From positions 128,001 to 192,000 of the forward strand of contig OZ220480.1 in the NCBI GenBank assembly GCA_965116025.1: a DNA stretch of 64,000 nt, written 5' to 3'. Origin of the DNA: an uncultured candidatus Porisulfidus sp. Its GTDB lineage: Bacteria; Pseudomonadota; Gammaproteobacteria; Poriferisulfidales; Poriferisulfidaceae. Numbering within the stretch: the stretch's first letter is position 1; every line of letters begins with the position of its first letter. The notes beneath the pieces were generated by a model. That model did no database searches. It was given only the letters and a program-made list of their open reading frames with translations, and had not been told where the DNA came from. The translations under genes and the position numbers were made by a program. Below, one piece after another: positions 3,001-30,404 of the stretch.

Positions 3001-6000
3001 CGGCGGAGCCACCGATGTCGATCCAGTCACCGTAGGCGGCCGTGCCAGCCTTCTGCTGGTATTGCCACTTCGTGACGCTGGCATCACCCAAAGCGGTCCA
3101 GGACAACGTCACTTGCCGATCACCCGCCATGGCGGCGAAAGCCGTCGGCGCGGCAGGCAGAGGCGGCAACGGTCTCACCGTGACCTCGACCGATGATGCT
3201 CCAAAACCGGAAGGATTCACCGCGCGAATCTTGAAACCGTATGTGGTTCCGTTCGTCAAGCCCGTCAGCTCGTGGCTCGTCGTGCTCGCGCTAGAGCTCC
3301 GAATGGCCATCCAAGAACCATAGCGCCCGGTTCCTTCTTTCCGCTGGTATTCCCAGCGCGTGACGCTCGCGTCGCCCGGATCTCTCCAAGACAGCGTCAC
3401 CCGCCCATCGCTCGCCGTGGCGGTGAAATCGCTTGGCGCAGAGGGCCGCGGGACCGGTATCGCTCTCACTTCGTCCGAGACCGCGCCCTCGCCGTTGGCG
3501 CTCACCGCGCGGGTCTGGAAGCGATACTCCGTTCCATTGTCCAGATTCGTCACCGTATGGCCCGTGGTGCCCGCGCTAGAGCCCGGTATTCTGGTCCAAG
3601 CGCCTTGGTTGCCAGATGCTTTTCCATGGCGCAACTCCCAGCCAGTGATCAACTCGTTTTTCGGATCGTCCCAAGACAGCGTCACCCGCGCGTCGCCCGC
3701 CATCGCTCTGAAGTTCGTTGGCTTCACGGGCGGGTCGTCCTCCGTCACCGTCACCACGACATCGTCGATATCCACATTGTCGTAGTCCGCGCCCAAGACG
3801 CCATGCGTCAGCGTCACCATGGGGTCCGCGCGCGCGTCGTCATCTTCTCCCGCCGTCACCGTCACCGTCCGCGCCACGTTCCAGTTCGAGGCTCCGAAAA
3901 CCATCGGAAAGCCTGACACCGTCACGTCTCCCGACGCGCCACCCACCGTCACCGTGACGTTCCCCGAAGGCCGCGTGTCCAGCTTCACCTCATATTCGCC
4001 CGCATCTCCCTCCTCCACCATCAGCGCGGATGTCGAGACCGACACGCCCGGCGCGTCGCTTTCCGTCACCGTCACCACGACCTTGTCAATGCTCACATCG
4101 CCATAGCCACCACCCGTGGCCGCATGCGTCAACATCACCGCAGGATCTGGAAGCGCGTCGTCGTCCGACATCGCTGACACCGTCACCGTCTGTGGCGCGT
4201 TCCAGTTCATAGTCGTGAAGGTCAGCAGATTCGGGGCCGCCGTCACGTCACCCGACGCGCCACCCACCGTCACCGTCACGGACCCCGAAGGACGCGCGTC
4301 GAGCGCCACCGTGTAGCTCCGGTCGGAGCCCTCCGGGACTCTCAGCGCGCGTGGTGAAAGCGACACGCCAAGCGGCATTGATGTCGGCGTCGACGTCACT
4401 TCCTCGGACCACGGGCTTGAATTTTCGCCGGAACCAAATCTGGCCCGCAAGCGAAACGTGTATTCCACGCCATTCTTAAGCCCTTCGGCCACTACGGATG
4501 TGGCGCTCGCAAGATTTACAACATGAAAATCCGCAGGCGCTTCGCCATAGTCTTCGCCACCGGATTTGTACTGATATTGCCACGACTGAATGCCCTGGCC
4601 AGACTGAGCGTTCCATCTCAGGGTGACCGAGCCGTTGCCCGCGACCGCCCGCAACTCACTTGGCGCGTCCACCACGCCAGCCCATATCTGGGTCTGGTCG
4701 GATACCGGGCCAGCGACCGTATCATTGACCGCGCGCGCGCGCAAATCCAGCGGTCCACTCCAGCTCGAATCCAGTTCCCTAACAGTGAATGACAGCGTCC
4801 ATACTTTGGTCGCTGACCCACTCTGGGATTTATTAACAGCTGATGACCATGTCGCCGCGTCATCCCAGTTTTCAGCAGGAGCCTTGGTCTGGAATTCGGC
4901 CCCGGTGACCTTCCCGCAATCGGCGGGGATAATCATCCAGAGTGTCCCAGACATCTCACCGTTAGATGATATGAGATTCCCTTCGGCTTTCTGAATTCCG
5001 ACCCTGCAGGGAGCCGCTAGGGTGGGGGTCGCCGTCTTCTCGGGCGATTCCGAGCCATCGCCCGAGGGGTTGATCGCGCGAATCTTGAAGCCGTACGCGG
5101 TTCCGTTCATCAGATTCGTCACTACGAAACTCGTCGTGCCCGCGGCGGAGCCACCGATGTCAATCCAGTCGCCGTAGGCGGCCGCGCCAGCCTTCTGCTG
5201 GTATTGCCACTTCGTGATGCTGGCGTTCCCTGGATTAGTCCAGGACAGTGTCACCTCTCCATCGCCCGCCGTCGCGGTGAAACCCGCCGGCGGCGCGGGC
5301 TTCGGTCTCGGAACCACGGACACACTTCCATATTCAATAGAACCCTGTAGAGACTTCATCGCCCTGATCTGAAAATCGTACTGGATTCCGTTGCTCAATC
5401 CCGTCACCGTGTGGCTAGTGGTGCTTACGCTCACTCGATTCCCCGGGCCTCCCAGCCACTCAGGAAAATTAATCTCGATACTAGTCTTGTACCGCACAAT
5501 CCACCTGTTGGTGATGCCATCGCTAGCGGCATCCCAAGAGAGCGTCACCTGCCCATTGCCCGGTTGCGCCCGGAGACCGGTCGGCTTCGCGGGCGTTCGA
5601 CTCTGCGGGGTCGCCGTCTTCTCGTCCGACGCTTGGCCGTTTCCCTTGGAATTCACCGCGCGGATTTTGAATTTGTACACGGTCCCGTTGGTCAGGCTCC
5701 CCACCACGTGCCGCGTGGAACTCGCGCCGGAGCCAGTGATATCGGTCCAGTTCCCATAATTGGCCGTGCCGGTCTTCTGCTGAAATTGCCACTTCGTGAC
5801 GCTGGCGTCGCCCAAGATGGTCCAGGACAGAATCACCAGCTCGTCACCTCCTATGGCCGTGAAACCGGTCGGTTTCGCGGGCAAGACTCGTTGCGGAGTC
5901 GCCGTCGCCTCGTCTGACGCGGCGCCGGGACCGGCAACATTGACCGCGCGGACCTTAAAACCGTAAGCGGTCTCGTTCGTCAAGCCCATCACCACGTAAC

Positions 6001-9000
6001 TCGTCGTGCCGAAGCCGGAGCCATCGATGTCGGTCCAGTTCCCGTAATTGGGTGCGCCGGCCTTCTGCTGGTATTGCCATTTCGTGACGCTGGCGTCGCC
6101 CAAGACGGTCCAGGACAGCGTCACCTCTCCGTCGCCCGCCATCGCGCTGAAACCGGTCGGCTTGGCGGGACGTGGAGGGAGTGGCGTCACCGCCGCATCG
6201 ACCGACGCGGCACCAGGACCGGCGACATTGACCGCACGGACCTGGAAGGCGTAAATGAGCCCGTTAGTCAGGCCCGTCACCAAGTGACTCGTCGTGCTCG
6301 CGCCGGAGCCATCAATATCGATCCAACCTCCGTAGCCCCCAGCCTCTTCCTTTCTCCGGATCTGCCATTTCGTTATGCTGGCGTCATCCGGGTCGTTCCA
6401 GGACAGCGTCGCCCGACCGTCACCGGCCGTGGCGGCGAAACCGAGCGGAGCGGCGGGAAGCGCGAGTGGCCTCGCCGTCGCCTCGACCGACGCGGCGCCG
6501 TCACCGTAAAGATTCACCGCACGCGTCTGGAAGCCGTAGATCGACCCGTTGATCAAGCCCGTCACCGTATGGCTCGTCGTGCTCGCGTCAGAATTCGGGA
6601 TGTCGGTCCAATCGCTGTACGCGCCACCGTCGACGTTCCGTCGGAATTGCCACTTCGTGATTCTGTCCTCACTCGGCGGGTCGTTCCAGGACAGCGTCGC
6701 CTCTCCATCGCCCGCCATCGCGGTGAAACCGGTCGGCGCGACGGGCGGCACCTCGTCGTTGACGATGGTGATGGTGGCTGAACTCGTAGCGACCCAGTCC
6801 GGGGGCGCGTTCTCCACTCTCAACGTGATCGTCTCGTCTGGTTCGACATTTTCGTCGCCCCGAATGCTGAAAGTGAACTGTTTCGTCTTGCCACCTCCTA
6901 GAAACAAGACGCTGTTGGAGCCCGCGCTCCAACACATGTCCGCGTCTACCGGCTTTGGCTCTTCGCAGGAGTTCACTGAGATGTTGGTGTTCCCTGCCGC
7001 AGTCGACGCGTCGTCGATCACCAAGTGAAACAAAAGTTGCCTGAAATTTCCCCCGAAACCTCCCGAACTGGGCGGCAACTCGCCGAGCAGGATATCGATG
7101 GTCACGGGGGTCTCGCCAGCGTTCCCCTCAATGAACCGGGTCTTGGAGGCCGACAGCAGAATGATCTTGCCCGGCGGGATCGCTTCTGCTTCATTCGAGG
7201 CGACGCCCGCGCCATTTCCATTCACCGCGCGAACCTGAAATTTGTACCGCGTCCCGTTCGTCAGGCTCGTCACCGTATGGCTCGTCGTGCTCGCGTTGGA
7301 GCTCGGAATTCGGATCCATTCGCCGTAGGGCCCGGTTCCAGCTTTCTGTCGATAATCCCAGCGCGTAATAGCGATGCTCTCGTCGCGCGGTCTCAGCCAA
7401 GCCAGCGTCGCCCGCTTTTCGCCCGGAGTGGCGCTCGAAATAAATGGCTTTGGGGGAACTTTATCGTCCTCCTGCACCTTCACAATAACCGAGTCAATGG
7501 CCGTCCAGACGTAGTCACCCCCTCTGGCGCGATGCGCCAGCGTCACGTCGGGGTCCGTGACCGCGTCGGCATCTTGCTTCGCCGTCACCGTCACCGTCCG
7601 CGACGTCTCCCAATTCACCGTGGTGAACGTCAGCACCGCCGGAGTCGCCATCACGTCAGACGAGGAACTACGGACCGTCACCGTCACCTTTCCCGTTGGA
7701 CGGGTCTCCAGAACCACCGCGTACTCGGCATCGGCGCCACCCTCAACCATCGACAATGAGGTCGGCGTGACCGTCACTCTGGCTTCGGCGGGTATGCCCC
7801 TAGCCACTTCCGACGGCGGGCCATCGCCAGAGATATTCACCGCGCGAATCCTGAACGAGTACGTGGTGTCCGCGGTCAAACCCGAAACCGTATGGGTCGT
7901 CGTGGCGGCACCGGAGCTTGGGATCGGCGACCAAGCGTCATTGGACTCAAAATTGCCAGTACCCACCTTTCGCTGGTATTCCCATCGGATGATGCTGGGG
8001 TCAATCGGATCATTCCAGGACAGCATCATCTTCGCGTTGCCCACTGGCGTGGCCTCCAGGCCTGCCGGTTTGCTGGGGGGCGGGATTGGCGTCGCCGTCA
8101 CTTCATCCGATTCTGGGCCTCCGCCTCCCGCATTCCGCGCGTGAATTTTGAAGGTATAGGTTTGCCCGTTCGCCAGGTCCGCCACCGTGTGACTTGTCGT
8201 GCTCGCGTTGGAGGCTATCGGAATCCAGTTACTATAAAGCCTTTTGCCCTGCTTCAGCTGATAACTCCACCCATCGATACTTGGGTCTTCAGGATCATCC
8301 CAAGAGAGCGTCACCTTTTCGTGGCCCGGCGTGGCGGTCAAACCCTCCGGTTTTTCTGGACGCGGGACTTGCGGACTCACAAACAGCCTCTGCGATAGGG
8401 CACCTTCAGCCGAACCATTCCTCGCGCGAATCTGAAAATGGTACCGCGTCCCATTCGCCAGACCCGTCACCGTATGGCTGGTGGTGCCTGCGCCAGAATT
8501 CTGGATAGGAGCCCAAACTGGTTGCCTGCTTGGACGCGGGTACTGGGAGTACTCCCACTTCGTGATTCTGGGGTTGCCGCTTGGAGCATCCCAAGACAGC
8601 GTCACCTGCTTATTGCCCGCCATCACCTGAAAGTTGGTCGGCATGCCTGGCTTGGTGTCATCGTCGACGATAGTGAGAGCGATATCTCCCTGTTCCCAGA
8701 TGAATCCGCTATCATCAAAGTTGCCATCACCGAGAGTGCCTGTGCGTCGCACCCAAACCTGTAGCCGCAACACCTCATCAGCCTCCATATTCTTGTCGCC
8801 CCGGATGCCAACCTCAAGCGTTCCGGTTCTCTTACCAGCCGGTATTAGCACCGTTCTTCTGAGCCAGCAAGCGTCCTCTTCAGTCAGAGCTGTGTTAGTG
8901 CATAAACCGTTGTCCGAGTTTCTATCGAACCAACTTCCCCTAGTCTTCTTAACATAACCAGACCCGAAAGCGCGACTCTCGACGACCTCCAACGCCAAAT

Positions 9001-9547
9001 GATTAGGATATGCTGGATCAACAGAGAACGCGTCCGCGCTGAGCGTGATGTGAAGGGTGACGGTTTTGGTGTCACTATCTCCTTCCGCGATCCGCGGCGT
9101 GGTGGTCGACACATGAATGGGGCCACCCTTTTCCGATGGATCAGCTGGGGGAATTGGCGTCGCGACCGCCTCGTCTTGGACTACGACTATCGCACTCCCA
9201 CTCTCCCCTCGTTTCCGTGCGGTCACCTCGAAGGTGTAGGCGACCCCGTTCACTAAATTTTTCACTACATGGCGAGTAGCACTCGCGGTCTCCGAGATTC
9301 TTACGGCATCCCCGTATTCTTCTCCAGCCGCTTTTATCTTGTATTCCCACCACTGGATAGTAGCGTCTTCTGGATCTGTCCATTCCAGAGTCACTTCCCC
9401 ATCACCCGATGTCGCGGTGAGGACCGTGCTGGAGGCTCTCGTGTCCTGCGGGGCCAGCGCGGCACTCAGCGCGAGCAGAAAAGCGACGGCGAACGCCGCG
9501 TTCTTGCGATAGGCTGTTTTCCAGGAGCAGCCCGCGGATTCAGCCAT
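1..9547 (-). CDS. Giant secreted/surface repeat protein (>3,180 aa, 3' end outside window): about 18 fibronectin type III domains, Calx-beta-like and PKD/cadherin-like Ig repeats
   Basis: ATG at 9547 gives MAESAGCSWKTAYRKNAAFAVAFLLALSAALAPQDTRA (signal-peptide-like). Same frame spot-checked at 8803, 6862, 4315 and 31. Recurrent 'P.GF.A..GD..VTLSW...ITKWQY...Y.F..RAVN..G' (Fn3) and 'TVTITDDD' (Calx-beta) motifs. Not every codon was checked for stops. Confidence 0.88.
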   Translation of the reverse strand, partial: MAESAGCSWKTAYRKNAAFAVAFLLALSAALAPQDTRASSTVLTATSGDGEVTLEWTDPEDATIQWWEYKIKAAGEEYGDAVRISETASATRHVVKNLVNGVAYTFEVTARKRGESGSAIVVVQDEAVATPIPPADPSEKGGPIHVSTTTPRIAEGDSDTKTVTLHITLSADAFSVDPAYPNHLALEVVESRAFGSGYVKKTRGSWFDRNSDNGLCTNTALTEEDACWLRRTVLIPAGKRTGTLEVGIRGDKNMEADEVLRLQVWVRRTGTLGDGNFDDSGFIWEQGDIALTIVDDDTKPGMPTNFQVMAGNKQVTLSWDAPSGNPRITKWEYSQYPRPSRQPVWAPIQNSGAGTTSHTVTGLANGTRYHFQIRARNGSAEGALSQRLFVSPQVPRPEKPEGLTATPGHEKVTLSWDDPEDPSIDGWSYQLKQGKRLYSNWIPIASNASTTSHTVADLANGQTYTFKIHARNAGGGGPESDEVTATPIPPPSKPAGLEATPVGNAKMMLSWNDPIDPSIIRWEYQRKVGTGNFESNDAWSPIPSSGAATTTHTVSGLTADTTYSFRIRAVNISGDGPPSEVARGIPAEARVTVTPTSLSMVEGGADAEYAVVLETRPTGKVTVTVRSSSSDVMATPAVLTFTTVNWETSRTVTVTAKQDADAVTDPDVTLAHRARGGDYVWTAIDSVIVKVQEDDKVPPKPFISSATPGEKRATLAWLRPRDESIAITRWDYRQKAGTGPYGEWIRIPSSNASTTSHTVTSLTNGTRYKFQVRAVNGNGAGVASNEAEAIPPGKIILLSASKTRFIEGNAGETPVTIDILLGELPPSSGGFGGNFRQLLFHLVIDDASTAAGNTNISVNSCEEPKPVDADMCWSAGSNSVLFLGGGKTKQFTFSIRGDENVEPDETITLRVENAPPDWVATSSATITIVNDEVPPVAPTGFTAMAGDGEATLSWNDPPSEDRITKWQFRRNVDGGAYSDWTDIPNSDASTTSHTVTGLINGSIYGFQTRAVNLYGDGAASVEATARPLALPAAPLGFAATAGDGRATLSWNDPDDASITKWQIRRKEEAGGYGGWIDIDGSGASTTSHLVTGLTNGLIYAFQVRAVNVAGPGAASVDAAVTPLPPRPAKPTGFSAMAGDGEVTLSWTVLGDASVTKWQYQQKAGAPNYGNWTDIDGSGFGTTSYVVMGLTNETAYGFKVRAVNVAGPGAASDEATATPQRVLPAKPTGFTAIGGDELVILSWTILGDASVTKWQFQQKTGTANYGNWTDITGSGASSTRHVVGSLTNGTVYKFKIRAVNSKGNGQASDEKTATPQSRTPAKPTGLRAQPGNGQVTLSWDAASDGITNRWIVRYKTSIEINFPEWLGGPGNRVSVSTTSHTVTGLSNGIQYDFQIRAMKSLQGSIEYGSVSVVPRPKPAPPAGFTATAGDGEVTLSWTNPGNASITKWQYQQKAGAAAYGDWIDIGGSAAGTTSFVVTNLMNGTAYGFKIRAINPSGDGSESPEKTATPTLAAPCRVGIQKAEGNLISSNGEMSGTLWMIIPADCGKVTGAEFQTKAPAENWDDAATWSSAVNKSQSGSATKVWTLSFTVRELDSSWSGPLDLRARAVNDTVAGPVSDQTQIWAGVVDAPSELRAVAGNGSVTLRWNAQSGQGIQSWQYQYKSGGEDYGEAPADFHVVNLASATSVVAEGLKNGVEYTFRLRARFGSGENSSPWSEEVTSTPTSMPLGVSLSPRALRVPEGSDRSYTVALDARPSGSVTVTVGGASGDVTAAPNLLTFTTMNWNAPQTVTVSAMSDDDALPDPAVMLTHAATGGGYGDVSIDKVVVTVTESDAPGVSVSTSALMVEEGDAGEYEVKLDTRPSGNVTVTVGGASGDVTVSGFPMVFGASNWNVARTVTVTAGEDDDARADPMVTLTHGVLGADYDNVDIDDVVVTVTEDDPPVKPTNFRAMAGDARVTLSWDDPKNELITGWELRHGKASGNQGAWTRIPGSSAGTTGHTVTNLDNGTEYRFQTRAVSANGEGAVSDEVRAIPVPRPSAPSDFTATASDGRVTLSWRDPGDASVTRWEYQRKEGTGRYGSWMAIRSSSASTTSHELTGLTNGTTYGFKIRAVNPSGFGASSVEVTVRPLPPLPAAPTAFAAMAGDRQVTLSWTALGDASVTKWQYQQKAGTAAYGDWIDIGGSAAGTTGHKVTGLTNGIAYGFKIRAVNLGGPGAESPEVSATPVLSRPAAPTGLRAEGSDRRVTLFWNNPNDSSITKWQFRQKSGRGSYADWADISGSRATTTYYAVTGVSETRTFQIRAVNAAGPGAPSGEVTQGPDSGKPARPTGLKATPGNGKVRLSWDDPDDEKITSWMVRYRTFPIVQFRRWHENVPTVKRNIKSTSYVVGNLPNGRRSDFEVVALAGSNVFDGEIGDPARASATPVPLPAKPTGLRAQPGNGQVTLSWNNPNNPNIAKWQYQFKAGADPNYQPWVDIGGSGAGTTSYVVMGLINQAEYQFRIRAVEPFGDGGPPSDSVDVGPTPDLVSIPKALTVAEGVGNAVVTITTTKAFQGRAIFNVLYGGVATGASDPANGDYDNDETTSVRFEESDLTKDITIPITDDDLDEKDETFTVSINSVRLSANFALTNAMATVTITDDDSSPVLDAIEDLTVRVGQTVDITASATDEDGDAITYAWTRKVGETTPALPNGTALNQDQLTFAPVGPGVYTMTVTASDGNGNEATEKVVITVVPALMVSIPSQVAVTEGTNASAVVKITTPEAFGRETTLNVSYGAASVGIAATGAPVPANGDYDNDQVTLVNFSSTDTMKNIMIPITDDHLDEDAETFAVTINSAALPAGFTLGNAVATVTITDDDASPVLDEIDDQTINLGQVVDITASAMDADGDDVTYAWTRKAGETVPALPARAVRNRARLAFIPVETGTYTMQVTASDGNGNTDTEDVTITVVSAAMVSVPKTLSVAEGAGNAVVTITATKAFPNGAVFNVSYSGTATGASNPANVDYDNDATTSVRFGASDLTKDITIPITDDELDDDAETIKVTISSAALPAGFTLGNAVTTVTITDDDASPVLAEIRDQTVGLGQMVDITASATDEDNDAITYVWTREAGETTPTLPNGTALNQAQLTFTPVDPGVYTMTVTASDGNGNTDTEKVVITVASKVEVSSVRLQVEEGGSGSYTVKLKSEPS
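95..1990 (-). repeat. Three tandem ~630-bp units (Calx-beta-like + PKD/cadherin-like domain) inside the giant gene
   Basis: 'accggcga(c/g)g..tcgtc.tccgtgatcgtcaccgtgg' recurs at ~354, ~984 and ~1632; 'ITYAWTR/VTYAWTR/ITYVWTR' and 'DGNGN' motifs recur with the same period. Confidence 0.85.
2000..8650 (-). repeat. Fn3 domain arrays with ~285-290 bp period, interrupted by Calx-like domains
   Basis: 'gacagcgtcac'-like (VTLSW) motif at ~2225, 2535, 2815, 3100, 3390, 3675, 4620, 5245, 5540, 5825, 6115, 6400, 6690, 7400, 8020, 8305 and 8595 (plus ~9390 outside this span). Confidence 0.85.
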
Positions 9548-9567: not shown

Positions 9568-9600
<33 letters not shown>

Positions 9601-19915: not shown

Positions 19916-21247
19916 CCCAGTTTCAACTTTCAAGTGCAACAGCATTGTAACCCGGTGGAGAGCGGCGAGAGCGGCAGGATGACGAAGAGGATCGGGGGAA
20001 GGCGGCGAGGGTCGGTCGCCGGACGGGAAGAACGGCAGGATGGTGAAGAGGGTCGGGGGAAGCTGGCGACAGTCGGCCGCGTTCCGTCCGGGGAAGGTCG
20101 GCCTCCCCCGGACGAATCATCGCCGCGCCAACCTGCCCCCTCGGATTTACAAAAGCCGGGACATCTCCTCTCGCCAGGCACGAACCACCTCCGACTCCGC
20201 TCCGAAAAACGCCTCGTTCGGCGCGCGCCATCCCAAGCGGCGCCGAGGCCGATTGTTCAGGCTGTCCTCCACCGCCCGCGCCTCCTCCTCCGAGATCGTG
20301 TCGAACCGCCGCGACTTCGGGAAATACTACCGGATCAGCCCGTTCGCGTTCTCGTCGCTCCCACGCTGCCAAGAGGAATACGGATCCGCGAAATGAAACT
20401 CCGCGCCCAGGAGGCGCGCCACCCGCCGGTGATCCGCGAACTCGGTTCCATTGTCCGAGGTCACGGTCAGAACCCGGTCCTTCAACGGCGCCAGCATGCC
20501 GATGATCGCGTCCGCCACCGCGCGCGCCGAGCGCCGGGGCAACCGCTTGAAACGCACCAGCCGCGACTTGCGCTCGAGCAGCGACGCCAGAACCCCGCTG
20601 CCACGCCGTCCGATCACCGTGTCCGCTTCCCAGTCTCCCAGCCGCGAGCGCGTCTCCACCACCTCCGGACGCTCCTGGATCGGCACCCGCCCCGGAATGC
20701 GCGACCGGCCCTTCCCGCGCCCATACCGCCGGCGTCGGCGGTGGCCTTGCCGCAAATGCAGATACAGGTCGCCGCCCCGCCGCCGATCCGCCCATACCCA
20801 ACGGTAGATGAGCTCGTGGCTCACCTTCCCCAAGCCCTCCTTGTCCAGCCACGCGCTGATCCGCTGCGGGCTCCAGCCCTGCTTCAGCAGCTTCTTGACC
20901 CGCCTCCACACCGTCGGCGAGACCCGCCGCCGAGCTCGCTTCTGGCGGCGCTCTTTCGCCTTTCGGCACGCCAGCTCGGCCCGGTATCGTCCGCTCCGAG
21001 CGTCGGCGTTCCGCTTCAGCTCGCGGCACGCCGTGCCGCGGTCGACGCCGATCCTTCGCGCCACCTCCGCCTGGCTCATGTCGAGGCCCCGCAGCGCCTC
21101 GATCTGGTAACGTTGGGTCTCGGTGAGTTGCGTGTAACTTCTCATAAGCGCCTCTCTCGGGGGCGGTTTTTGACAATGAGACCTTACCGCGACTCATCGC
21201 CTACACCGCCATTCTTCGGAGTGTTGCGCTTGAAAGTTGAAACTGGG
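19916..21247 (-). mobile_element. IS30-family insertion sequence with 26-bp terminal inverted repeats
   Basis: Left cccagtttcaactttcaagtgcaaca versus right (rev-comp) cccagtttcaactttcaagcgcaaca, 1 mismatch; encloses an IS30 transposase; no flanking target duplication seen. Confidence 0.92.
20147..21145 (-). pseudogene. IS30 transposase with in-frame TAG
   Basis: MRSYTQLT.. HTH, GDWEADT, TVTSDNGTEF, WQRGSDENANGLIR*YFPK (family consensus LIRQYFPK); frame continues LNNRPRRRLGW to TAA at 20147. Confidence 0.9.
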
Positions 21248-22068
21248 GGCTGGTAGCAAAAATTCTGGACATGGCCTGCGGCAAGGAATCGATCATTCTC
21301 GATTCATTCGCCGGTTCCGGAACGACCGGGCATGCGGTTCTCATGGCCAACAAAAAGGACGGCGGGCGCCGCCGCTTCATTCTGGTCGAGCTTGAGGAGT
21401 ACGCGGATCAGGTGACGGCCGAGCGCATACGTCGCGCCATTGGCGGCTACGACTTCACCGGCGCTCAGCGCGTGGAGTTGATGCGCGAGAAACTGACCTG
21501 GTCCGCGCTTCGAAGCCCCAAAAAATGGGCGGACACCATCGCCGCCACCGAGAATCTCCAAAGCCTCCACGGCCACGAATACGACGCGATCCGGAAAACG
21601 TTCAAGAACGGGACGCTCGTCGTTACGGGCGAGAAAAAGGCGGACCGCCGCGCTGATGGCCTGGGCGGGGAATTCACCTTCTGCACCTTGGGCGAACCGC
21701 TTGATGCCGATGGAGTGCTGACGGGAAAGACGCTCCCTCAATACGAGGCCCTCGCCGGCTTTCTCTTCCACATGGCGACTGGCCAGTCTCTGGATCTCTC
21801 TTCCGTGCGCGAAGAGGATTTCTACCTCGGAGAGACCGACGCGCGACATGTCTGGATGGTCTACAAGCCCGACCTCGAATGGCTGAAATCGCCAGAATCC
21901 GCCCTGACCTTGACTCGCGCGCGGCGGTGCGCGGCAGCGGACCCGAAGAAAGAGCATCTCGTCCTCGCGTCGGCCCGCTATGTGGGCCGGGAAGTGCTGG
22001 CCGAGGAGAATCTCCCCGTCGAGTTCGTATCCCTTCCGTTCACCCTCTATCGAGCCGGTGGCGGTTGA
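21248..22068 (+). pseudogene. C-terminal fragment of a Type III R-M Mod (DNA methyltransferase) subunit
   Basis: 'IILDSFAGSGTTGHAVL..NKKDGGRRRFILVE' is typical of Mod; the N-terminal part with the catalytic DPPY motif is missing, cut at the IS end. Confidence 0.85.
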
Positions 22069-22071
22069 TCC

Positions 22072-22338
22072 GTGTTTCGTCAGCTGGACTACCAAAAGTG
22101 CGCGCTCGACACGTTCGCGACCTATATCGACGAGCTGAAGGACGCGCGGCGCAACGCGGAAGGCGTCGCCACGCTGATCAAGAGAAACCCGGAGCTGAGA
22201 CTGCAAGCTCCAGATTTCCTGGTGGAAGCCTGGGAAGCAATGCGCGACAAAAACCTGCTCCCCGCCTCGCGTCACGCCATCCCTTTTTCCCCGCGTCTTG
22301 ATGGATGCGGCCGCTCGGTCCCGAACGCGGTCCTCAAG
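22072..22338 (+). pseudogene. N-terminal fragment of a Type III R-M Res subunit
   Basis: 'LDYQ..ALD...RLDGCGRSVPNAVLK' resembles Res N-termini and stops just where the Walker A (PTGGGKT-type) is expected; 3 nt after mod stop. Confidence 0.7.
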
Positions 22339-22399
22339 AGCCCAGAAATCGGGAGAATATGTGAATTCGGCAAACTCAGTGGCTTCGAACATCCACTCG

Positions 22400-25300
22400 T
22401 CAGTTCTCTTTCTCTGCTTCAATTCCCATCCAGCAAAGCAACTCTATATCATCTTCGCTAATTGGCGGAAGGGGAGCCGGGGGCTTGGCTGGCTCCAGAC
22501 CAATCTCAAGAATATGGCCAATCAAGGTGCGCGAACACTCACCATCCTGATTTTCTTCCGATTCAAACCAGCCACGGAGCAGCTGTTCTTCACGGCGCGG
22601 CCAAGGTGACTCCAGGATGTCCAATGCTCTTTCGAATCTCTCTTCCGGCTCATCGTGGGGAGGATGTTCACGGATAAATGTCGCGACTCGGTGGTTGAGA
22701 GGTCGAACGTTTGGCTGGAGGTTGGCAGGGTCGGTTTCCCGCATCCAATCACGCAAAATATCCTGTTGCGCAATTTCCCAAAAATCGTAAACGCATTTTT
22801 CCAAAAGATCTGAATGCCAAGCAGGCGTGTCGCAAGCACATTCGATCCGGCGCAAGCAAGTTCCCAGTTCACTCTCGACAGCATCATCATCCAATCTCGG
22901 ATGCCACTCCTCGTCCGCCACAATGAACCGAAGATAGGTTCGTTCCAAGTCGCTGTCTCTACCAACGACCGCGCAAAAGAACACTCCTCGCTTATCGCCC
23001 CTGATCATGCTAGAACCAGCCTTCCACGGCAACCGGGTAATTCTCTCGCTATCTTGCTGTAGAGCCTTTCGCAATGTCTGCCGGTACTCCTCCCCTGTTT
23101 GCGCGGCGCTTATCGTCCCGCCGCGATTGAAAAGCGACGCGTCTTCAGCAAGCAATTTCTCAATCTCTTGACGTGTTTCCGTGAATACCTGCCGCCCATG
23201 CGAAGCATTTTGAATCGGGGCCATGACCCCGATACTAGCGGCCGCCATCGCAAGCTTGTCAAGTATGCGCTGTTCCAGATTGAGTAGCCGATCAAGTCGA
23301 TCTGCTGGAAACATCGTCCGCAAGAATACACGATTATGGGGGCTACCAATACGATCAATTCGGCCATGCCTCTGGACCAGCCGCATCGGGTTCCACGGCA
23401 CGTCAAAATTAATAATATTCCGGCACTGCTGAAGGTTCACACCTTCGGCGAGCACATCAGTAGCGATCATAAGATCGTAGAGATCATCGTCCTGGCCACG
23501 CGACGCTCCCATCGAAACTGGTGCGAAACCCTGCACCGCGCTTTGGCGAGATTCCTGGGCAAGGTTGCCAGATCCGCTAACCACGGTTATCCGTCCACGA
23601 TAACCTGCAAGGTTTGGTCGAACATCAATCACGAAATTCAGATAGTCTCGAATCCACTCAACGGTATCTTCGAAGAACGAGAATATGACCACTTTGCGCT
23701 TTTGCCGCTCGTCCAAAGCATTTATGGCTTCGCGCTCGGCTCGCTCCACTATCTTTTCCAGAGATTCAGCAAGAACTTGGAGTTTCGGGTCTTGATCCTT
23801 GGTTACTTTCTTAGCCTGATCCTTCAGACTCCGCAACAACTCACGATCTCGCTCAACCGCCGAGCGTAGATTCACTATCTTGTAAGCTGAAGCAGCTTCG
23901 CGGTACTGCGAGGAAGAAAGAAGATCTTCAAATACAGAATCATCGTCTGCTGACAACTCTTTCATGAAACCCGTTCTGACAACATAACCCGCATCAAGTG
24001 CTTTGATAAACACATCGTGTTCTTCAACCATCTTTTTAATAGTGTTGCAAAATGCAAAAATGGAGGACTCGAAGCGTTTCAGCAAACCTGAACGTAATAA
24101 GCCTATCAACGCTCCAGCGCGAGCGATTTCCTCGTGGTCTCGTTCACATGAATATTCCTCGGGTATGTAGCGCGCGAAAGCGATAGATTGTTCATGGTCT
24201 GGATCAAGCGCTCGTTCCAGCTCGTCGAAAAAGCCGGGCAGAATCTCATCTAGGTCATACCGCACACTAATGGCATTAGGCTTGGGAAAGACTATAGGAC
24301 AGGGTTTCCCATCGAGCCCTTTTATGGTGTCTCGAGAGTAATGTTTCTTCACGAACTGGCGAGTCCGCTTGACCGTGGTCGCATCAATAATCGGATAAAG
24401 GATATCTGGACTCAGGCTGGATGGATCTTCACGCATGGCGCGATCGAAACGTTCGCGTATCGACCGAATTCCTCGATCCGAAAGATGTGCGTCTTGTCGC
24501 AGAAAAAAGCGAATTAGATGGTAGAGATCCCATAGCGAATTGTTAACTGGAGTGGCGGTCAGAAGAAGTAGATCACGCCGCTTTCCAAACAAAAGTCGGC
24601 GTAACACGGCCGCTCGCGTAGGCGTGTCAGGATTGCGGTAGTTATGCGCCTCATCAACGATAACAAGTTGATATTCTTCTAACGGTTGCTTAATGTGCTC
24701 TTGATCGGCCCTGGGCCGTTGAACATCACGGAGCTGTCTATCATTCGCGAGTTGCTCAAATGACAGGCATTCGCCAAACAATTGATAAGTGTTCAAAAAT
24801 TCTCTCCATGTCGTGTCACGGAGCGACGCTGGGCAGATCAGCAAGGCGCGTTGCCGACATTCGTGGTAAATCTTGAGTATCTCGCCCGCAATAAACGTCT
24901 TCCCAAGACCAACCTCATCAGCAACAATTACACCACCCATTTCTCGTATCAGTCGGCGTGCTCGCGCAACTCCATGCTTCTGAAAACTAGTCAGTGGCAA
25001 ATTGTTGTCGTCGCTCCTATCGCCTTCGACTTCCTCGCCATAAAGATGCCAAAGCACACGAATGAAGATATCCCACGGCTTATGACGCGCCAAAGCATCC
25101 TCGAAAACAGCAGCGAGGTCATAAGGGACAGAATCCTCCCACAGGTCGTCGAACCATTCCTTTCCTTGCTCCGCGATTTCACGGTCGTAACGCCCCAAGT
25201 TAAGCTCAAGGTTTTGGGTAAGGCCTGCACTGGTCAGATTGGACGAGCCTACTATTAGCCCTTCTGAACCACTGGCATTCTCACTCGACGGTGTGGAAAT

Positions 25301-25753
25301 ATAGGCTTTTGCGTGCAAGAATGCATCCTCATATCGCCTGACCTCAATGTTTCCAGCCTGAAGAGATTCGATCAATTTCCGTAATGTTTTCGCACTCGGA
25401 CCGGTGAAGGGAAGACTGTCTCGCTCCCGCTGAAGTGTAAAGTCCATGCGAGATAAGCCCGCCCGCACCTGTCGCTGTTGGAATGCGGATAAAGTCTCAC
25501 TGAGCTTCTTCCGCTCACCTGCCCAAGTGGCGGCTGGGTCGGCACCGAGAAGAATTCGCACCATTGGCACAGGACGCAGAAAGTCAGCAATTTGCGCGAA
25601 GCCTGTTGGGTTGAAATATGCTGTAGCTATGCGAATAGAATTTGATGAAACATTCGTAGATACCTGTTCATCAAAACTATCAAAAAACAAACGTAGGGCA
25701 CTCTGGAGAGTATTCCCGTCTTGATTGTCGATAAACTCAGGAAGATCCGTCAT
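22400..25753 (-). CDS. PLD-family nuclease domain fused to SNF2-like SF2 helicase (1117 aa)
   Basis: FLHAKAY...GSSNLTSAGL..NLELN (PLD-like); ADEVGLGKT, VDEAHNY, LTATPVNN, ATDVLAEGVNLQ, WNPMRLVQRHGRIDRIG (helicase motifs). Confidence 0.92.
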   Translation of the reverse strand: MTDLPEFIDNQDGNTLQSALRLFFDSFDEQVSTNVSSNSIRIATAYFNPTGFAQIADFLRPVPMVRILLGADPAATWAGERKKLSETLSAFQQRQVRAGLSRMDFTLQRERDSLPFTGPSAKTLRKLIESLQAGNIEVRRYEDAFLHAKAYISTPSSENASGSEGLIVGSSNLTSAGLTQNLELNLGRYDREIAEQGKEWFDDLWEDSVPYDLAAVFEDALARHKPWDIFIRVLWHLYGEEVEGDRSDDNNLPLTSFQKHGVARARRLIREMGGVIVADEVGLGKTFIAGEILKIYHECRQRALLICPASLRDTTWREFLNTYQLFGECLSFEQLANDRQLRDVQRPRADQEHIKQPLEEYQLVIVDEAHNYRNPDTPTRAAVLRRLLFGKRRDLLLLTATPVNNSLWDLYHLIRFFLRQDAHLSDRGIRSIRERFDRAMREDPSSLSPDILYPIIDATTVKRTRQFVKKHYSRDTIKGLDGKPCPIVFPKPNAISVRYDLDEILPGFFDELERALDPDHEQSIAFARYIPEEYSCERDHEEIARAGALIGLLRSGLLKRFESSIFAFCNTIKKMVEEHDVFIKALDAGYVVRTGFMKELSADDDSVFEDLLSSSQYREAASAYKIVNLRSAVERDRELLRSLKDQAKKVTKDQDPKLQVLAESLEKIVERAEREAINALDERQKRKVVIFSFFEDTVEWIRDYLNFVIDVRPNLAGYRGRITVVSGSGNLAQESRQSAVQGFAPVSMGASRGQDDDLYDLMIATDVLAEGVNLQQCRNIINFDVPWNPMRLVQRHGRIDRIGSPHNRVFLRTMFPADRLDRLLNLEQRILDKLAMAAASIGVMAPIQNASHGRQVFTETRQEIEKLLAEDASLFNRGGTISAAQTGEEYRQTLRKALQQDSERITRLPWKAGSSMIRGDKRGVFFCAVVGRDSDLERTYLRFIVADEEWHPRLDDDAVESELGTCLRRIECACDTPAWHSDLLEKCVYDFWEIAQQDILRDWMRETDPANLQPNVRPLNHRVATFIREHPPHDEPEERFERALDILESPWPRREEQLLRGWFESEENQDGECSRTLIGHILEIGLEPAKPPAPLPPISEDDIELLCWMGIEAEKEN

Positions 25754-26022
25754 AGCAACGCGACCAAAAGAAACTGTGCCCGTTTATTGCGCAACATCTC
25801 AAGAGATGTAATTATTGATACCGAACCCCCAAACAAAAGGAAAGTTTTTGATGCAGTGCCTGGATACGAAAGCCATCTCTCTGTTTTTATTATCGGTTGC
25901 ACCTCACCACTCTCCCAAAGACGATATTTGGAGAATTTGTAAGTCAGTTCATCAGCCTCTATCTTGACTCGTTCGCAGATCCAATGCAGAACATCCAGAG
26001 CCACGAGAACCCTAATCATCAT
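25750..26022 (-). CDS. Hypothetical 90-aa protein translationally coupled between MTase and helicase
   Basis: ATGA overlaps at both ends (26019-26022 and 25750-25753); GGAGG just upstream of ATGATG. Confidence 0.55.
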   Translation of the reverse strand: MMIRVLVALDVLHWICERVKIEADELTYKFSKYRLWESGEVQPIIKTERWLSYPGTASKTFLLFGGSVSIITSLEMLRNKRAQFLLVALL

Positions 26023-29000
26023 TTCCTCCATCTCTGGAAATGTCGGTGAACGCCTGTGAGACGCGCATCGTAATCCCAACCTTCATGAAAAGTCTTAAAA
26101 ATATGGATGAGTTGATTCTCATCCAGACCATAAAGGCAGGCGACAATCGCATCAAGCTCATGGATCATGTCATTCTTCTCGTCTTCGGCAAGTGGACCAC
26201 ACTCAACTCCAACCGATTCTGCCCAAGTGGAAAAACGGTCATCTGGACTAGCCAAACGTCCAGCAAGTGCGACGACCCGTTGCCAGCGAGGATCATTACG
26301 TTCGGGACGTGGAATCGGAAAAGGATTGAGGAGAAAAAAATTAACATTCAACTCAACAAAGCACCGCGCATACCAATCCAGTGGAATCGAACTTAGTACG
26401 CCCAGCAAGAAAGATTGATCCTGCTCATCACCACGAGGCCATAGGAAATATGGTCCTTTGTTCGTGAGAAAAATCTTAGGTGGTACGAGGCAAGCGATAA
26501 TAGTCCGCTGAGCTGTTCGACTGGTGATGTCACGGAATGCAATCCTAGGCATCAAACATGGGAGAGTAGAGCGACGCATCAAGTGCTTCGTAGAAAACTC
26601 TCGATGGGGACTGTTGCGCCGACTCTTTTTTGCCTTCAAGCGTTTGCTCTGGAGCCAATCGAGCACCGGTTCCGGTTTGGCCCAAGCATAGTAATGCCCA
26701 GTATCAGGGTTCCAAATATTGAACGATTTCCCCTTGTAAACAGGCCAATAGCCGTTGGGCTGAGTTTGGCTATCAAGAGCCATCAGGTGCTTCTGCGCCG
26801 TGGCGTGGAGTTCAGTGTCAGGCCTCGACCGCCATTTTGGTTGGGATTCTCGAACACCATGAAATCCTTCTGAAGCGTGGCATCCATCTCCCGGTCGGGA
26901 CGCGTACGCCATGCCCCCCCCCCCCCCCCTCATTTAAATCAAGACGTGGTGCTTTGCGCAACTGGGCGAAAACAGCTACAGAGTCCGATTTGGGCAACAG
27001 GGGAAGCGAAGCAGTGTCACCCCAAGAAAACACTTCCTCTCGGTTAAATTTAAAGGCGCATTTTTCGATGCTTTTTTTGAACTTCTCATACGAAGAAAAT
27101 GGGCCACGAAGGTGTATTGACCTCTCCACCGGCTCTCCATGGACTAGGCAGACAAGAGCAATGGTGTATGAACTCGCGACCTCATCAAAAACCCATCTGG
27201 CACGATTGATTAACGTTGTCGCTTTGACGCTCACTGATTGGTCGAAGATAATCCGGCGAAACGCAGTCGACCCCTTTGCTGATAACACGCTACGGGGTAA
27301 CACGACACCGACATGCCCACCCTCGACAGCCGACAACCGCCAGAATCTCCAGCAAAATGCCTTGTAGAAATCTGGATCGCCCGTTCCCATTCCAGGGTAC
27401 GAACCGCCTACGAGTGCCTTACGGACCCGTTCCATTTCGTCTAGTTCCGATTCATAGATGGCGACAAGATCTGGTCGATCAGCACGTAACCGCGATTTTT
27501 CTTGCTCTTGCTTTTTTTGCGTCAAACCACGGAGGCCGGGAAAATGTCGCGCCCAAAAAGCGTGTTCCTCAACTGTAGCCTCTTGCCACGGCGGATTACC
27601 AAGGATGACATCAAAACCCGGACGGTCACGCAAAAACACTTCAGGAAAAGTGATCGGAAAATGCAATGCATGGAGACCTTCGAGTTGCTCCTTCGCGGCT
27701 TTCGCTGTGTCCATCATTTTCTTCTCGTCAGACACCCTCCCCCATTGGTCGAACGTGAACCCTTTGATTGTCGGATCCTCTGATATAGATTGCGCTGTAA
27801 TAAGATCGCAAAGACACTCAGTTTTAGCAACAGCGGTTCGGATTTCCAGCACCGCTTCACGAGCCATGGAAATATCGGCAAGAGTCGCGTCCTTGACGTT
27901 GGCAAGACGATGGAGAGGCTTCTTTGCTGCGCCAAGCAATGCCTCCGCATCCACCTCGAACAATGGCAATGATGCTTCTTTAAATTTTTTTCTGATTTCC
28001 TCTATGCTTCCCACCCCAACGAGTGCATTTCCCCGAACTAGGTTATGGTCAAGAAATGAGAGTGGCAGACCGGGAATAAATGTATGGATCCAGATAGCAA
28101 GCCGGGCAAGTTGTACGGAAAGCGCATTCAAATCGACTCCGTGGATGCAACGCCGGGCAATCAGTCGACGGAGCAATTGGCTATCCTCTATTTCAAAGGT
28201 GGCAGAACCCAACTGTTGATGTGCTGCATTACGAAGCTCTTCTATATCTCTACGCACAGATGGAATCGAGTGGTCAGCAATCCAGTTAGCCATACGTTTC
28301 TCTATTCTATCGATAGCACCAATCAGGAAATGACCTGACCCCATCGCGATATCGGCCACTCGAAAATCGAAAAAATGATCTGCCACATCGGTATCGTCCA
28401 TTCGATCAAGGCAGTCAAAATGCTTATTGAGGGCGGGTTCCAAAGCTTCATCAAGCAGGTGTTCTACTGCAAAAGTCTTGGTGTAGTAGCTACCCGAAGC
28501 TTTGCGGGCGCCCGATTTATTATGGATATAAATCTCTCCACAAGGAACGACAACATCGTCTCCATTTCGAGCGGGCTTGTAATTTCCCCTCTGGTCCAGT
28601 GCCAAATCAGTTTCAGCGAGTGCAAGTCCAGATTCCAGTAACCCCTCGTAAATGGTTCCGAATTCGCGAACACCAAGTGACCGAAAATCGACTGGTCCCT
28701 GGACTCCATCGGGTGTTTCAATCACCAGAAGTTTCCGCAAGGCTGTTTCGAATGTCTTGTTAGACAACGAAAGGCTTGCAAGGGAGGCTCCAGTAGCAGA
28801 AATGTCCGAATCATCGGAAAAAAGCCCTCCATCGTAAGCGGGAACACCCCACTGCGGATTGCCATCAGCAACGGCCCGAAACAGTAATACCGTTTCTTGC
28901 CAATGGGTATCACCATCAGCTATCGGAGCATCCTTCTCGACATACTCGACGAGCTCCTGAGCTTTCTTTTTCAGTGAGCGCCTCCGATACGAATCATTGG

Positions 29001-30114
29001 AACGGTATGGCAATAAATCGCGGTCCTCGGCGTAGGCGATGAAGAGCAACCGAAACAACACCGTGAGCGTCATCTCATAGGTGTGCTCGAGATCCTCCGC
29101 CGTAGGCATATCCATGCGGCGTTCTGTAGCGATACCCTGTCCTAACACCGGAATGACGTGGTCGTAAATGCGCTCGCGGAGACGCTCCGCCAAATCACCC
29201 GCAAAGCGGCTCGAATTCTCGAGTATTTGATGGAGACTTCCTCCTCGTGTGAGAGCGTCCACCGAATAGAGCAACCAAAGATAGGGAGTATGTTCATCGG
29301 ACAGCAATGAGGATTGGCACTCGATAAATGTTTCGGTACGACCGCGTCGACCAACACCCACTTCATTGGCGGTCGCATAAAGACGGATGCGGCTCCCTTG
29401 CGTAAGGAGCACCCAAGGAAGGTTTTCGTCATCGGCCTTCTTGAGCGCGTAGGAAACCGGAGAGAGACTATTGAATCTATTGTTCCCAGCTTCCGGCGAT
29501 TCCTCCTCACACAACATGACCGCGAGCGCAGTACGGCGATCACCTCCCAATAACAAACTGGTTAGATTGTCTATCCGCTTAACACAAAATCCAAGCGCTT
29601 CCAGAAGATCACCGCCACGCTTACCAAGCAATGAAAAAGACTTGTCTCTCGCTGATTCCCAATCCGCCCTTTTCGGTACTCCATACCGTAATTCATGCAG
29701 AGCGAGCAAGCCCTCGTTGTTAAGCCCCGGAATATCCGTGTCAAGGGAAGGCAACGCTCTCGATAGAAACCGGAGGGCCGCATGCCGGCCCGGCTGGCTC
29801 AACGCTTCTCTACAGAGACGTTTAACCTGTGCCGCGTCAAGATCATCATAGATCGGCGGTTGCTCACCAGTGACACCACAAACCAAAACTCCGCCTGGGT
29901 GGATAATCACGAGCAAAACCGGAGCGGCTCGCCTCCCACGGCGGGACTTCCATATCTCAAGAATTTTCGAGTGAGCAAAATTATGCCCACAGGCTACGGC
30001 AACCTCAAGGGCAGGCGTACCTTCTCCTACATAGAGTTCTGGCGATTTTAAACCGTATTTTGAGTCAGGCGACCAAGACCTGACTACGTGACCGGAAAGA
30101 AATTGGGTAGCCAT
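26019..30114 (-). CDS. Type IIG/Eco57I-like gamma-class adenine DNA methyltransferase, frameshifted at a G16 tract (about 1364 aa if G15)
   Basis: RKASGSYYT, VADIAMGSGHFL (motif I), IHGVDLN, GFDVILGNPPW (motif IV) in 30114-26818; C-terminal TRD-like 'PRIAFRDITSRTAQRTIIACLVP...LLGVLSSIPLDWYAR' in a different frame (to 26019). Confidence 0.88.
26914..26929 (-). repeat. G16 homopolymer in the MTase coding strand at the frame switch
   Basis: C16 visible on + strand; upstream and downstream ORFs are out of frame by one base here. Confidence 0.92.
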
Positions 30115-30313: not shown

Positions 30314-30404
30314 TGGCGGAGAGGGAGGGATTCGAACCCTCGATGGGGTATCAGCCCATACTCCCTTAGCAGGGGAGCGCTTTCAGCCACTCAGCCACCT
30401 CTCC
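30314..30404 (-). tRNA. tRNA-Ser (GCT)
   Basis: GGAGAGGTGGCTGAGTGG...CTCCCCTGCTAAGGGAG (anticodon GCT), long variable arm, GGTTCGAATCC, ends CCA; usual position after csrA. Confidence 0.96.

Follow-up and report, generated by a model that had tools for sequence, protein, structure and literature searches.

A guanine tract that may select between DNA-reading loops stored in different frames of a bacterial methyltransferase gene

Introduction

Phase variation of methyltransferases is thought to act by ON/OFF switching, by gain or loss of a domain, or by recombination that shuffles domains. In a stretch of 64,000 nucleotides from an uncultured candidatus Porisulfidus sp. (GenBank assembly GCA_965116025.1, contig OZ220480.1, positions 128,001 to 192,000; hereafter the window), a gene for a gamma-class m6A methyltransferase (IIG/DrmMI-like) with a C-terminal TaqI/MmeI-like TRD is interrupted by sixteen consecutive guanines. 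What does this tract control? A sequence-only reading of the locus had proposed either an ON/OFF switch or a choice between a fused and a split enzyme. The analysis described here points to a third arrangement, which we regard as likely: a phase-variable specificity switch in which alternative DNA-reading loops are stored in different reading frames.

A guanine tract sets the frame of two tandem copies

Counted from the ATG at 30114, the assembled G16 allele encodes a product of 1098 aa with both copies of the segment described below out of frame (Table 1), while G15 and G18 give fused chains of 1364 and 1365 aa, and G14 and G17 give products of 1109 and 1110 aa. The truncation and the ~1364-aa fusion predicted by the sequence-only reading were reproduced by these computations, and the tract and its flanks, as well as an ATG (26912) placed 1 nt past the tract, are where it had put them. 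Its view that the tract switches the frame of a gene intact elsewhere also holds, with 65% identity over 1067 aa and 1% gaps relative to the single-copy homolog P0010. Aligned with single-copy homologs, the Gly run and about 26 residues form an insertion, as had been suspected. This insertion is a conserved second recognition segment, out of frame, which indicates a choice between segments rather than mere ON/OFF switching.

Table 1. Coordinates of the features discussed, numbered from the first nucleotide of the window.
Feature	Position	Strand	Basis or remark
tRNA-Ser, upstream edge of lower-GC defence island	30314-30404	-	
Constant N-part, gamma-class m6A methyltransferase (IIG/DrmMI-like)	26930-30114	-	PADLOC PDLC03620 800 bits; Pfam Eco57I
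G16 tract, proposed frame selector	26914-26929	-	C16 on + strand
ATG in copy-B frame, by-product of base before Trp codon, putative start	26910-26912	-	
Copy A, first TRD strand-loop; Arg7 26893, Asp10 26884	26835-26911	-	in frame at G14/G17
G16-frame stop; 1098-aa product, neither copy included	26818-26820	-	
Copy B, same segment; Thr7 26816, His10 26807	26784-26834	-	in frame at G15/G18
TGATG, copy-A-frame stop overlapping Met that opens shared C-terminal chain	26781-26785	-	
Shared C-terminal chain (254 aa): remainder of TaqI/MmeI-like TRD with helical bundle	26019-26783	-	
45-codon remnant of 381-aa gene	25885-26019	-	44% identity, 45 aa, E 2e-12
PLD(HKD)-SNF2 helicase, intact-looking	22400-25753	-	Pfam PLDc_2, SNF2-rel_dom, Helicase_C above cut-off
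Type III mod/res pair remnants	21271-22461	+	PADLOC MTase_III 342 bits, C-part only; REase_III residues 6-94 only
Insertion sequence, 26-nt inverted repeats, presumably IS30-like	19916-21247	-	HTH_38 + rve transposase
N6/N4 methylase fused to C-terminal HNH domain, 400 aa	17260-18462	+	

The two copies, A and B, start at 26911 and 26834, 77 nt apart and in different frames, and share 35 of 57 nucleotides and 11 of 19 residues. The frame of copy A continues through copy B and ends at a TGA (26785-26783) that overlaps the ATG at 26783. The locus therefore has three frame states: A in frame with the enzyme split, B in frame with the enzyme fused, and neither in frame (G16). The fused-versus-split proposal captures part of this picture, although the better-supported split chain is the 254-aa chain that starts at ATG 26783 in the G14/G17 frame. 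The open reading frames 26818-30114 and 26019-26933 match consecutive parts of PDLC03620 (45-1100 and 1089-1361). A silent TRD cassette elsewhere in the genome was sought by tblastn, which returned only the present locus.

A contig from a public sequencing run (depth 38) showed 0 differences from the window over 25600-28000 and G16 only; it possibly derives from the same source data as the assembly, and contigs lose rare variants. The tract lies outside the coverage of runs X2 and X3. In the genome of the window (G000), G/C runs number 45 at lengths of 15-39 nt and zero at 9-14 nt, which places the tract beyond chance, and runs of G13 or longer are found in 16/16 genomes of the genus.

The layout recurs across several phyla

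A search for the pattern of two tandem copies gave 71 matches (59 genome and 12 metagenome loci), 64 of which are true homologs, with the locus of G010 included and counted once; the seven matches without a homolog (L031, L046, L051, L053, L067, L072 and L075) were left out of all counts. Two loci, L030 and L078, are identical across the compared flank and possibly represent one data set. By their tree labels the loci belong to Pseudomonadota, Acidobacteriota, Gemmatimonadota, Actinomycetota and Binatota, and many of the 64 are sponge-associated, judged by titles. As the search pattern itself required tandem copies, these counts describe the loci selected and not how frequent the layout is within the family.

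Together with the window, 63/65 loci carry a repeat in the linker, compared with 53/1200 control windows from the same genes. The repeat unit is 1 nt long in 31 loci, 2 in 14, 4 in eight, 5 in one, 7 in seven and 8 in two, and is never 3 or 6. Two copies are present in 36 of the 65 loci, three in 26, four in two and five in one, with a copy finder that may miss some third copies. Copy spacing equals 3n+2 in 98/98 cases; the pattern permitted any gap, and four of the seven chance matches have other spacings, so that this frame relation was not imposed by the search. Gly or Pro runs were absent from all 138 single-copy linkers inspected.

Among 41 genomes that were searched, one further genome of the genus, G010, has a close homolog (65%), and carriers number 2 of 53 genomes within the order. 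The G010 locus has a G11 tract, both copies at the identical 77-nt spacing and a TGATGA, and was assembled in state A. Most listed long homologs are single-copy, and 12 of the 120 listed carry an out-of-frame insertion. All plasmid matches fall below 60% identity, and no relative was found in the viral collection searched. G006 (L004) and G040 (L003) hold distant TRD relatives of about 30% identity.

In what follows, loops are classed by positions 7 and 10 as RD (Arg/Asp, as in copy A), H (Thr/His, as in copy B) or QN (Gln/Asn). Of 23 loci organised as in the window, with an RD copy followed by an H copy, 10 were assembled in state A, five in state B and seven in neither, with one unknown; assembled homopolymer lengths may err, and this distribution does not differ from even thirds (p 0.42), with no avoidance of 'neither'. 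The close relatives L045 and L048 (98% flank identity) differ in both repeat length and state. In three-copy loci each frame holds a different allele (QN, H or RD), and such loci were seldom caught in state 3 (2/22 called). Damage is seen in L028, which has a stop inside copy A, and in L057, which is broken upstream.

No detected copy has a frame that reaches the C-domain in 23/61 loci, and in 13 of these 23 the stop of the last copy forms an A/GTGA overlap on the start of the C-chain. There a split enzyme appears to be normal. In three-copy loci such as L025, L033, L035 and L042, the frame of each copy stops at an ATGA/GTGA within the next copy, which suggests that restarts are handed on from copy to copy until the C-chain is reached. 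A second repeat behind the copies can restore the frame in L015, L021, L032, L041 and L076 (Acidobacteriota plus one metagenome contig), an alternative to stop-start coupling. Seven loci (L011, L016, L025, L030, L035, L039 and L060) have a second tandem pair about 350-450 nt upstream, also in different frames: the copy-1 frame reads on and the copy-2 frame stops. This upstream pair duplicates a segment of the methyltransferase domain that is single in the window gene, and in L035 it is accompanied by an upstream G run.

Both copies are under selection in their own frames

Selection was estimated in the 23 loci built like the window, which are kin, so that the statistics drawn from them are non-independent. 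Read in its own frame, copy A had a pN/pS of 0.20 and copy B of 0.21, compared with 0.14 for a downstream control, while values in the other frames were 1.8-3.5. As the fused protein never reads copy A in its own frame, some other state must read it. Moreover, copy A always carries a natural allele that differs from that of copy B. The B frame runs open through copy A in 23/23 loci versus 8.3 expected by recoding; however, copy B is open in the equivalent frame in 22/23 loci and ordinary windows are open in 143/230 cases, making the dual-coding signal weak. Openness of the third frame gave no signal (13 observed versus 11.2 expected).

At the TGATG site the stop overlaps the restart Met in 23/23 of these loci, of which 18 have both a TGATG-type overlap and ATGA, three have ATGA only and two have a TGATG-type overlap only. 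A stop at this Met is expected anyway, in 21.2 of 23 loci when the protein sequences alone are synonymously recoded, so that only the shift from Met-Asp to Met-Thr/Ser speaks for coupling: Met-Asp, which is incapable of ATGA, occurs in 127/136 single-copy proteins, whereas ATGA occurs in 21/23 tandem loci. Among the short homologs listed, 83/120 are 250-266 aa long and nearly all start at the restart Met; these are gene-caller predictions rather than proof of expression.

Modelled states and candidate base-reading positions

Structure prediction was applied to natural examples of both coding states. The model of the B-state fragment P0007 shows disorder across the insertion (residues 414-443) and a strand and a helix in copy B. 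For state A, the N-chain of G010 (residues 480-1124) and its 255-aa C-chain were predicted to form a complex scoring 0.89, while the best of three controls scored 0.01; the mark for a complex was reached by 116/157 solved pairs and by 2/215 mismatched pairs. Contact agreement between runs was at least 82%, partner pLDDT was at least 86, and residues 1082-1102 of copy A lay in the predicted interface. The two chains being parts of a single split gene, this high score may stem from resemblance to enzymes of solved structure.

The predicted structure from the copy-B Trp onward has a pLDDT of 91. Sequence searches of the PDB gave no match, so the structural link rests on fold searches. These align model residue 1 with MmeI 636 (Z 11.8, rmsd 4.8, 193 aligned), with CamA 340 (Z 14.1, rmsd 3.5, 184 aligned) and with Salmonella PglX 678. 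If the alignment is ungapped, positions 7 and 10 would correspond to MmeI Tyr642/Lys645 and CamA Gln346/Ile349, a mapping anchored solely at the first residue of the alignment and presupposing 10 gap-free residues. According to the available part of the MmeI study, Tyr642/Lys645 set base pair 2 of TCCRAC, and relatives reading G at this base pair have Lys or Arg at 642 (PMC4833311). For CamA, the accessible text assigns Gln346/Ile349 to A3, with A6 as the flipped base (PMC8187626). Both of these bases lie 3 before the methylated A. On the same mapping position 7 would be PglX 684, the first residue of a region whose mutation, in the part of the report available, altered specificity (10.1101/2024.04.12.589231).

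On this structural comparison, the RD loop of copy A would most likely ask for G 3 before the methylated A, the H loop of copy B would most likely ask for another base, probably C, and a QN loop would be predicted to read A. The single-copy homologs (n=136) comprise 94 H loops, P0017 among them by loop class, 36 RD, five QN and one other. These classes flip between close sisters on the tree, such as P0011/P0041 and P0107/P0118/P0100; the C-chain tree was built by a quick method from 179 rows, and its resolution is too poor to tell whether the tandem layout had a single origin.

The methyltransferase gene lies beside a PLD-SNF2 helicase

The island genes have about 51% GC compared with 62-64% in the flanks, and the methyltransferase gene lies 200 nt downstream of the tRNA-Ser. 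A search of the window for a repeat of the tRNA 3' end (12-20 nt) gave no match, and a scan for promoters and terminators stayed at chance level. A homolog of the PLD-SNF2 helicase is found near the methyltransferase in most loci with enough DNA. In L013, L023, L040, L044, L047 and L052 a gene of ~381-401 aa, which we guess to encode an HTH plus ImmA/IrrE protein, lies between the C-chain and the helicase; L013 has the full-length 381-aa gene at the place of the remnant, and the window keeps its first 45 codons.

The methyltransferase has motif I before NPPW, and its fold matches M.BseCI, CamA, PglX, MmeI and BpuSI (Z 11-15). Residues 1-300 gave no match to any nuclease family at E values up to 10, and the strand that we take to be the expected site of E-x-K, the motif presumed for a PD-(D/E)xK nuclease at the methyltransferase N-terminus, is hydrophobic by eye; the PADLOC IIG model covers residues 39-1067. 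Because no nuclease family matches this N-terminus, the helicase-PLD protein is the likely restriction partner or effector.

Comparison with known systems yields partial likenesses. A PLD-SF2 helicase, the effector type of MANTIS and BR type 2, is present, as is a frame-shifting repeat within the methyltransferase gene, a feature of phase-variable methyltransferases. The DUF499 ATPase and alpha-class methyltransferase of MANTIS were not found here, DUF499 occurring at 1.68 and 1.95 Mb in G000 and 0 times in G010. DISARM class I does not fit, with a DrmD model score of 169 bits against a cut-off of 610 and no more large same-strand genes in the island that could be its partners. Nor does BREX, with PglX at 26 bits against a cut-off of 400 and brxC and pglZ absent among the island ORFs. 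In contrast to an H. pylori-type addition of a C-terminal domain by read-through, the copies here sit inside the protein, where the TRD begins, and the frame admits at most one of them at a time.

A proposed frame-stacked specificity switch and its alternatives

Taken together, the conserved layout and the selection on both copies support a model in which slipped-strand mispairing would alter the G tract by single bases in vivo and so choose between loops. In state A (G14/G17) the N-chain closes with copy A and some 17 further junk residues; at TGATG translation would halt and restart with the 254-aa C-chain, and the two chains may assemble into a loop-A enzyme. In state B (G15/G18) a single 1364-aa chain has copy B in place, with the fold as modelled, and copy A, read out of frame, is predicted to be a disordered loop. 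The G16 state, which has neither loop, is probably OFF. Positions 7 and 10 would read base pair 3 before the methylated adenine, as suggested by the structural comparison. By analogy with related systems, the methyltransferase probably guides the PLD-SNF2 helicase, such that marking and restriction would change together, and a switch of specificity may be survivable, as with a MANTIS TRD swap. Low-level co-expression of states is possible, as in the leaky Mycoplasma mod gene.

Plain ON/OFF switching is the usual effect of such tracts, as far as the available part of PMC7383803 describes. It would mean that only the fused G15/G18 product works and that copy A is a leftover of duplication, in keeping with the fused B-state proteins in databases (12 of the 120 listed) and with the broken copy A of L028. 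We consider this unlikely, because copy A is constrained (pN/pS 0.20) in a frame not used by the fused product, because its allele always differs from that of B in the 23-locus group, and because three-copy loci store QN, H and RD in one frame each. Copies A and B might instead be recombination cassettes, with deletion or gene conversion changing specificity and the tract only resetting the frame. Unequal exchange does occur, given the extra RD copies of L016, L018 and L058, and four single-copy proteins (three H, one RD) with a tandem-type long linker and Met-Thr/Ser could be collapsed arrays. However, A and B share just 35/57 nt, and neither the invariant 3n+2 spacing (98/98) nor the stop-start overlaps are necessary for a recombination switch, leaving this explanation improbable.

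The sequence-only reading had also proposed that G16 yields a 297-aa chain (copy B plus the C-part) from ATG 26912; the G run would serve as ribosome-binding site, making G16 a 'B, split' state. Such a chain can coexist with the specificity switch, and gene callers predict chains of 296-302 aa in four database entries. In 11/23 relatives the stop of the third frame falls 4 nt ahead of the NTG in question, which is ATG, GTG or TTG in all 11 compared with 6/12 of the others, and a 297-aa-type chain may therefore exist there. Those 11 loci, however, are kin, and any base preceding the Trp codon TGG yields NTG, with no preference for ATG (ATG 6, GTG 5, TTG 6, CTG 6), so that ATG 26912 carries little weight. 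In the window itself the G16 frame stops 92 nt beyond ATG 26912, which makes the supposed coupling impossible, and we regard the proposal for G16 as doubtful. An assembly artefact, whether a mis-called homopolymer or merged strains, is a most remote explanation of the locus. The assemblies are metagenomic throughout, and the tract length may be off by one; nevertheless, the 77-nt duplication persists at any tract length, the public-run contig (possibly the same data) has 0 differences, and the two-copy layout is found in a second genome of the genus (65% protein identity) and at 64 loci overall. For the two-copy layout, the artefact reading is refuted.

The specificity switch that we favour may be one instance of a general prokaryotic device for the mutually exclusive choice of coding segments without splicing or recombination, a reading to which we give slightly less than an even chance. 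Such a device would stack as many as three loop alleles, each in a frame of its own. Any repeat that shifts the frame could pick among them, and read-through, a second repeat or stop-start coupling would reconnect the chosen allele with the remainder of the enzyme. The second stacked pair of Acidimicrobiia could make the switch combinatorial, with up to 2 x 3 specificities per gene.

If the model is correct, the 'wrong' frames store alternative specificity loops, two of the three states remain active, and no recombinase is needed to change state. Arg/Asp, Thr/His and Gln/Asn would then amount to a compact code by which an uncharacterised family of enzymes recognises a single base position. The layout occurs widely among sponge-associated bacteria from several phyla, away from the pathogens in which such switches have been studied. 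Annotation would overlook the switch, since the gene resembles a pseudogene in most assemblies.

Relation to known repeat-driven switches

Known repeat-driven switches add or remove a domain; here alternative loops lie in the other frames. Campylobacter jejuni NCTC11168, like the organism of the window a host-associated bacterium, reportedly has a phase-variable Type IIG enzyme that is switched ON and OFF, for which we know of no tandem copies. A search of literature with few subscription journals turned up no account of alternative loops stacked by frame, and the passages found in a 2026 review hold nothing on this design (PMC13076061).

The nearest precedents are the H. pylori Type IIG enzymes JHP1272 (Hpy99XIV) and HP1353-HP1354 (HpyAXVI), in which, according to the available text, a homopolymer frameshift changes the recognition sequence (PMC3936762). 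They and the window gene are both gamma-class and IIG-type, with specificity changed, or in the window probably changed, through a second partial TRD copy; in H. pylori, as the same portion has it, the second tract appends a C-terminal domain, which takes the place of the resident part, and ON/OFF switching falls to another tract (PMC3936762), whereas the window gene would have one tract, mutually exclusive internal copies and one state made of two chains. In Type I hsdS genes (NgoAV; the extended three-TRD HsdS), repeat length switches specificity rather than expression; there, as far as the accessible text goes, whole TRDs are truncated or extended, the other frames store nothing and no C-terminal restart is involved (PMC7383803). 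C-terminal phase variation in Neisseria gonorrhoeae resembles the present locus in that three frames after a repeat lead to different ends, one of them a fusion, but the alternative ends are not described as homologous functional copies in the part available (PMC5320596).

MANTIS and the BREX-related type 2 systems share with the window an m6A methyltransferase and a PLD-SF2 helicase effector, judging from the portions available (10.64898/2026.09.23.753747, PMC12839542). MANTIS, in the same portions, requires a DUF499 ATPase and MtsB together with an alpha-class methyltransferase, while the window has a two-gene core and a gamma-class methyltransferase (10.64898/2026.09.23.753747, PMC12839542). 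In MANTIS, the accessible text reports, swapping the TRD alone shifted specificity with no detectable toxicity (10.64898/2026.09.23.753747). Leaky expression from out-of-frame repeats is described for a Mycoplasma mod gene in the available part of 10.64898/2026.04.01.715767.

Other guanine runs in the genome

Of the 45 long G/C runs in G000, 24 share flanks of a single dispersed family, found where long ORFs begin, and the two checked are autotransporters. The remainder lie in or beside genes for an FN3 adhesin, a glycosyltransferase, and Type ISP, N6/N4 and N6 methylases, as well as DUF499, PAPS-reductase-like and RTX/ABC-export genes. Within the window, a 29-nt run (9569-9597) ends 22 nt 5' of the ATG of a giant repeat protein (>3182 aa; 2-9547, minus strand) that is FN3-like by eye.
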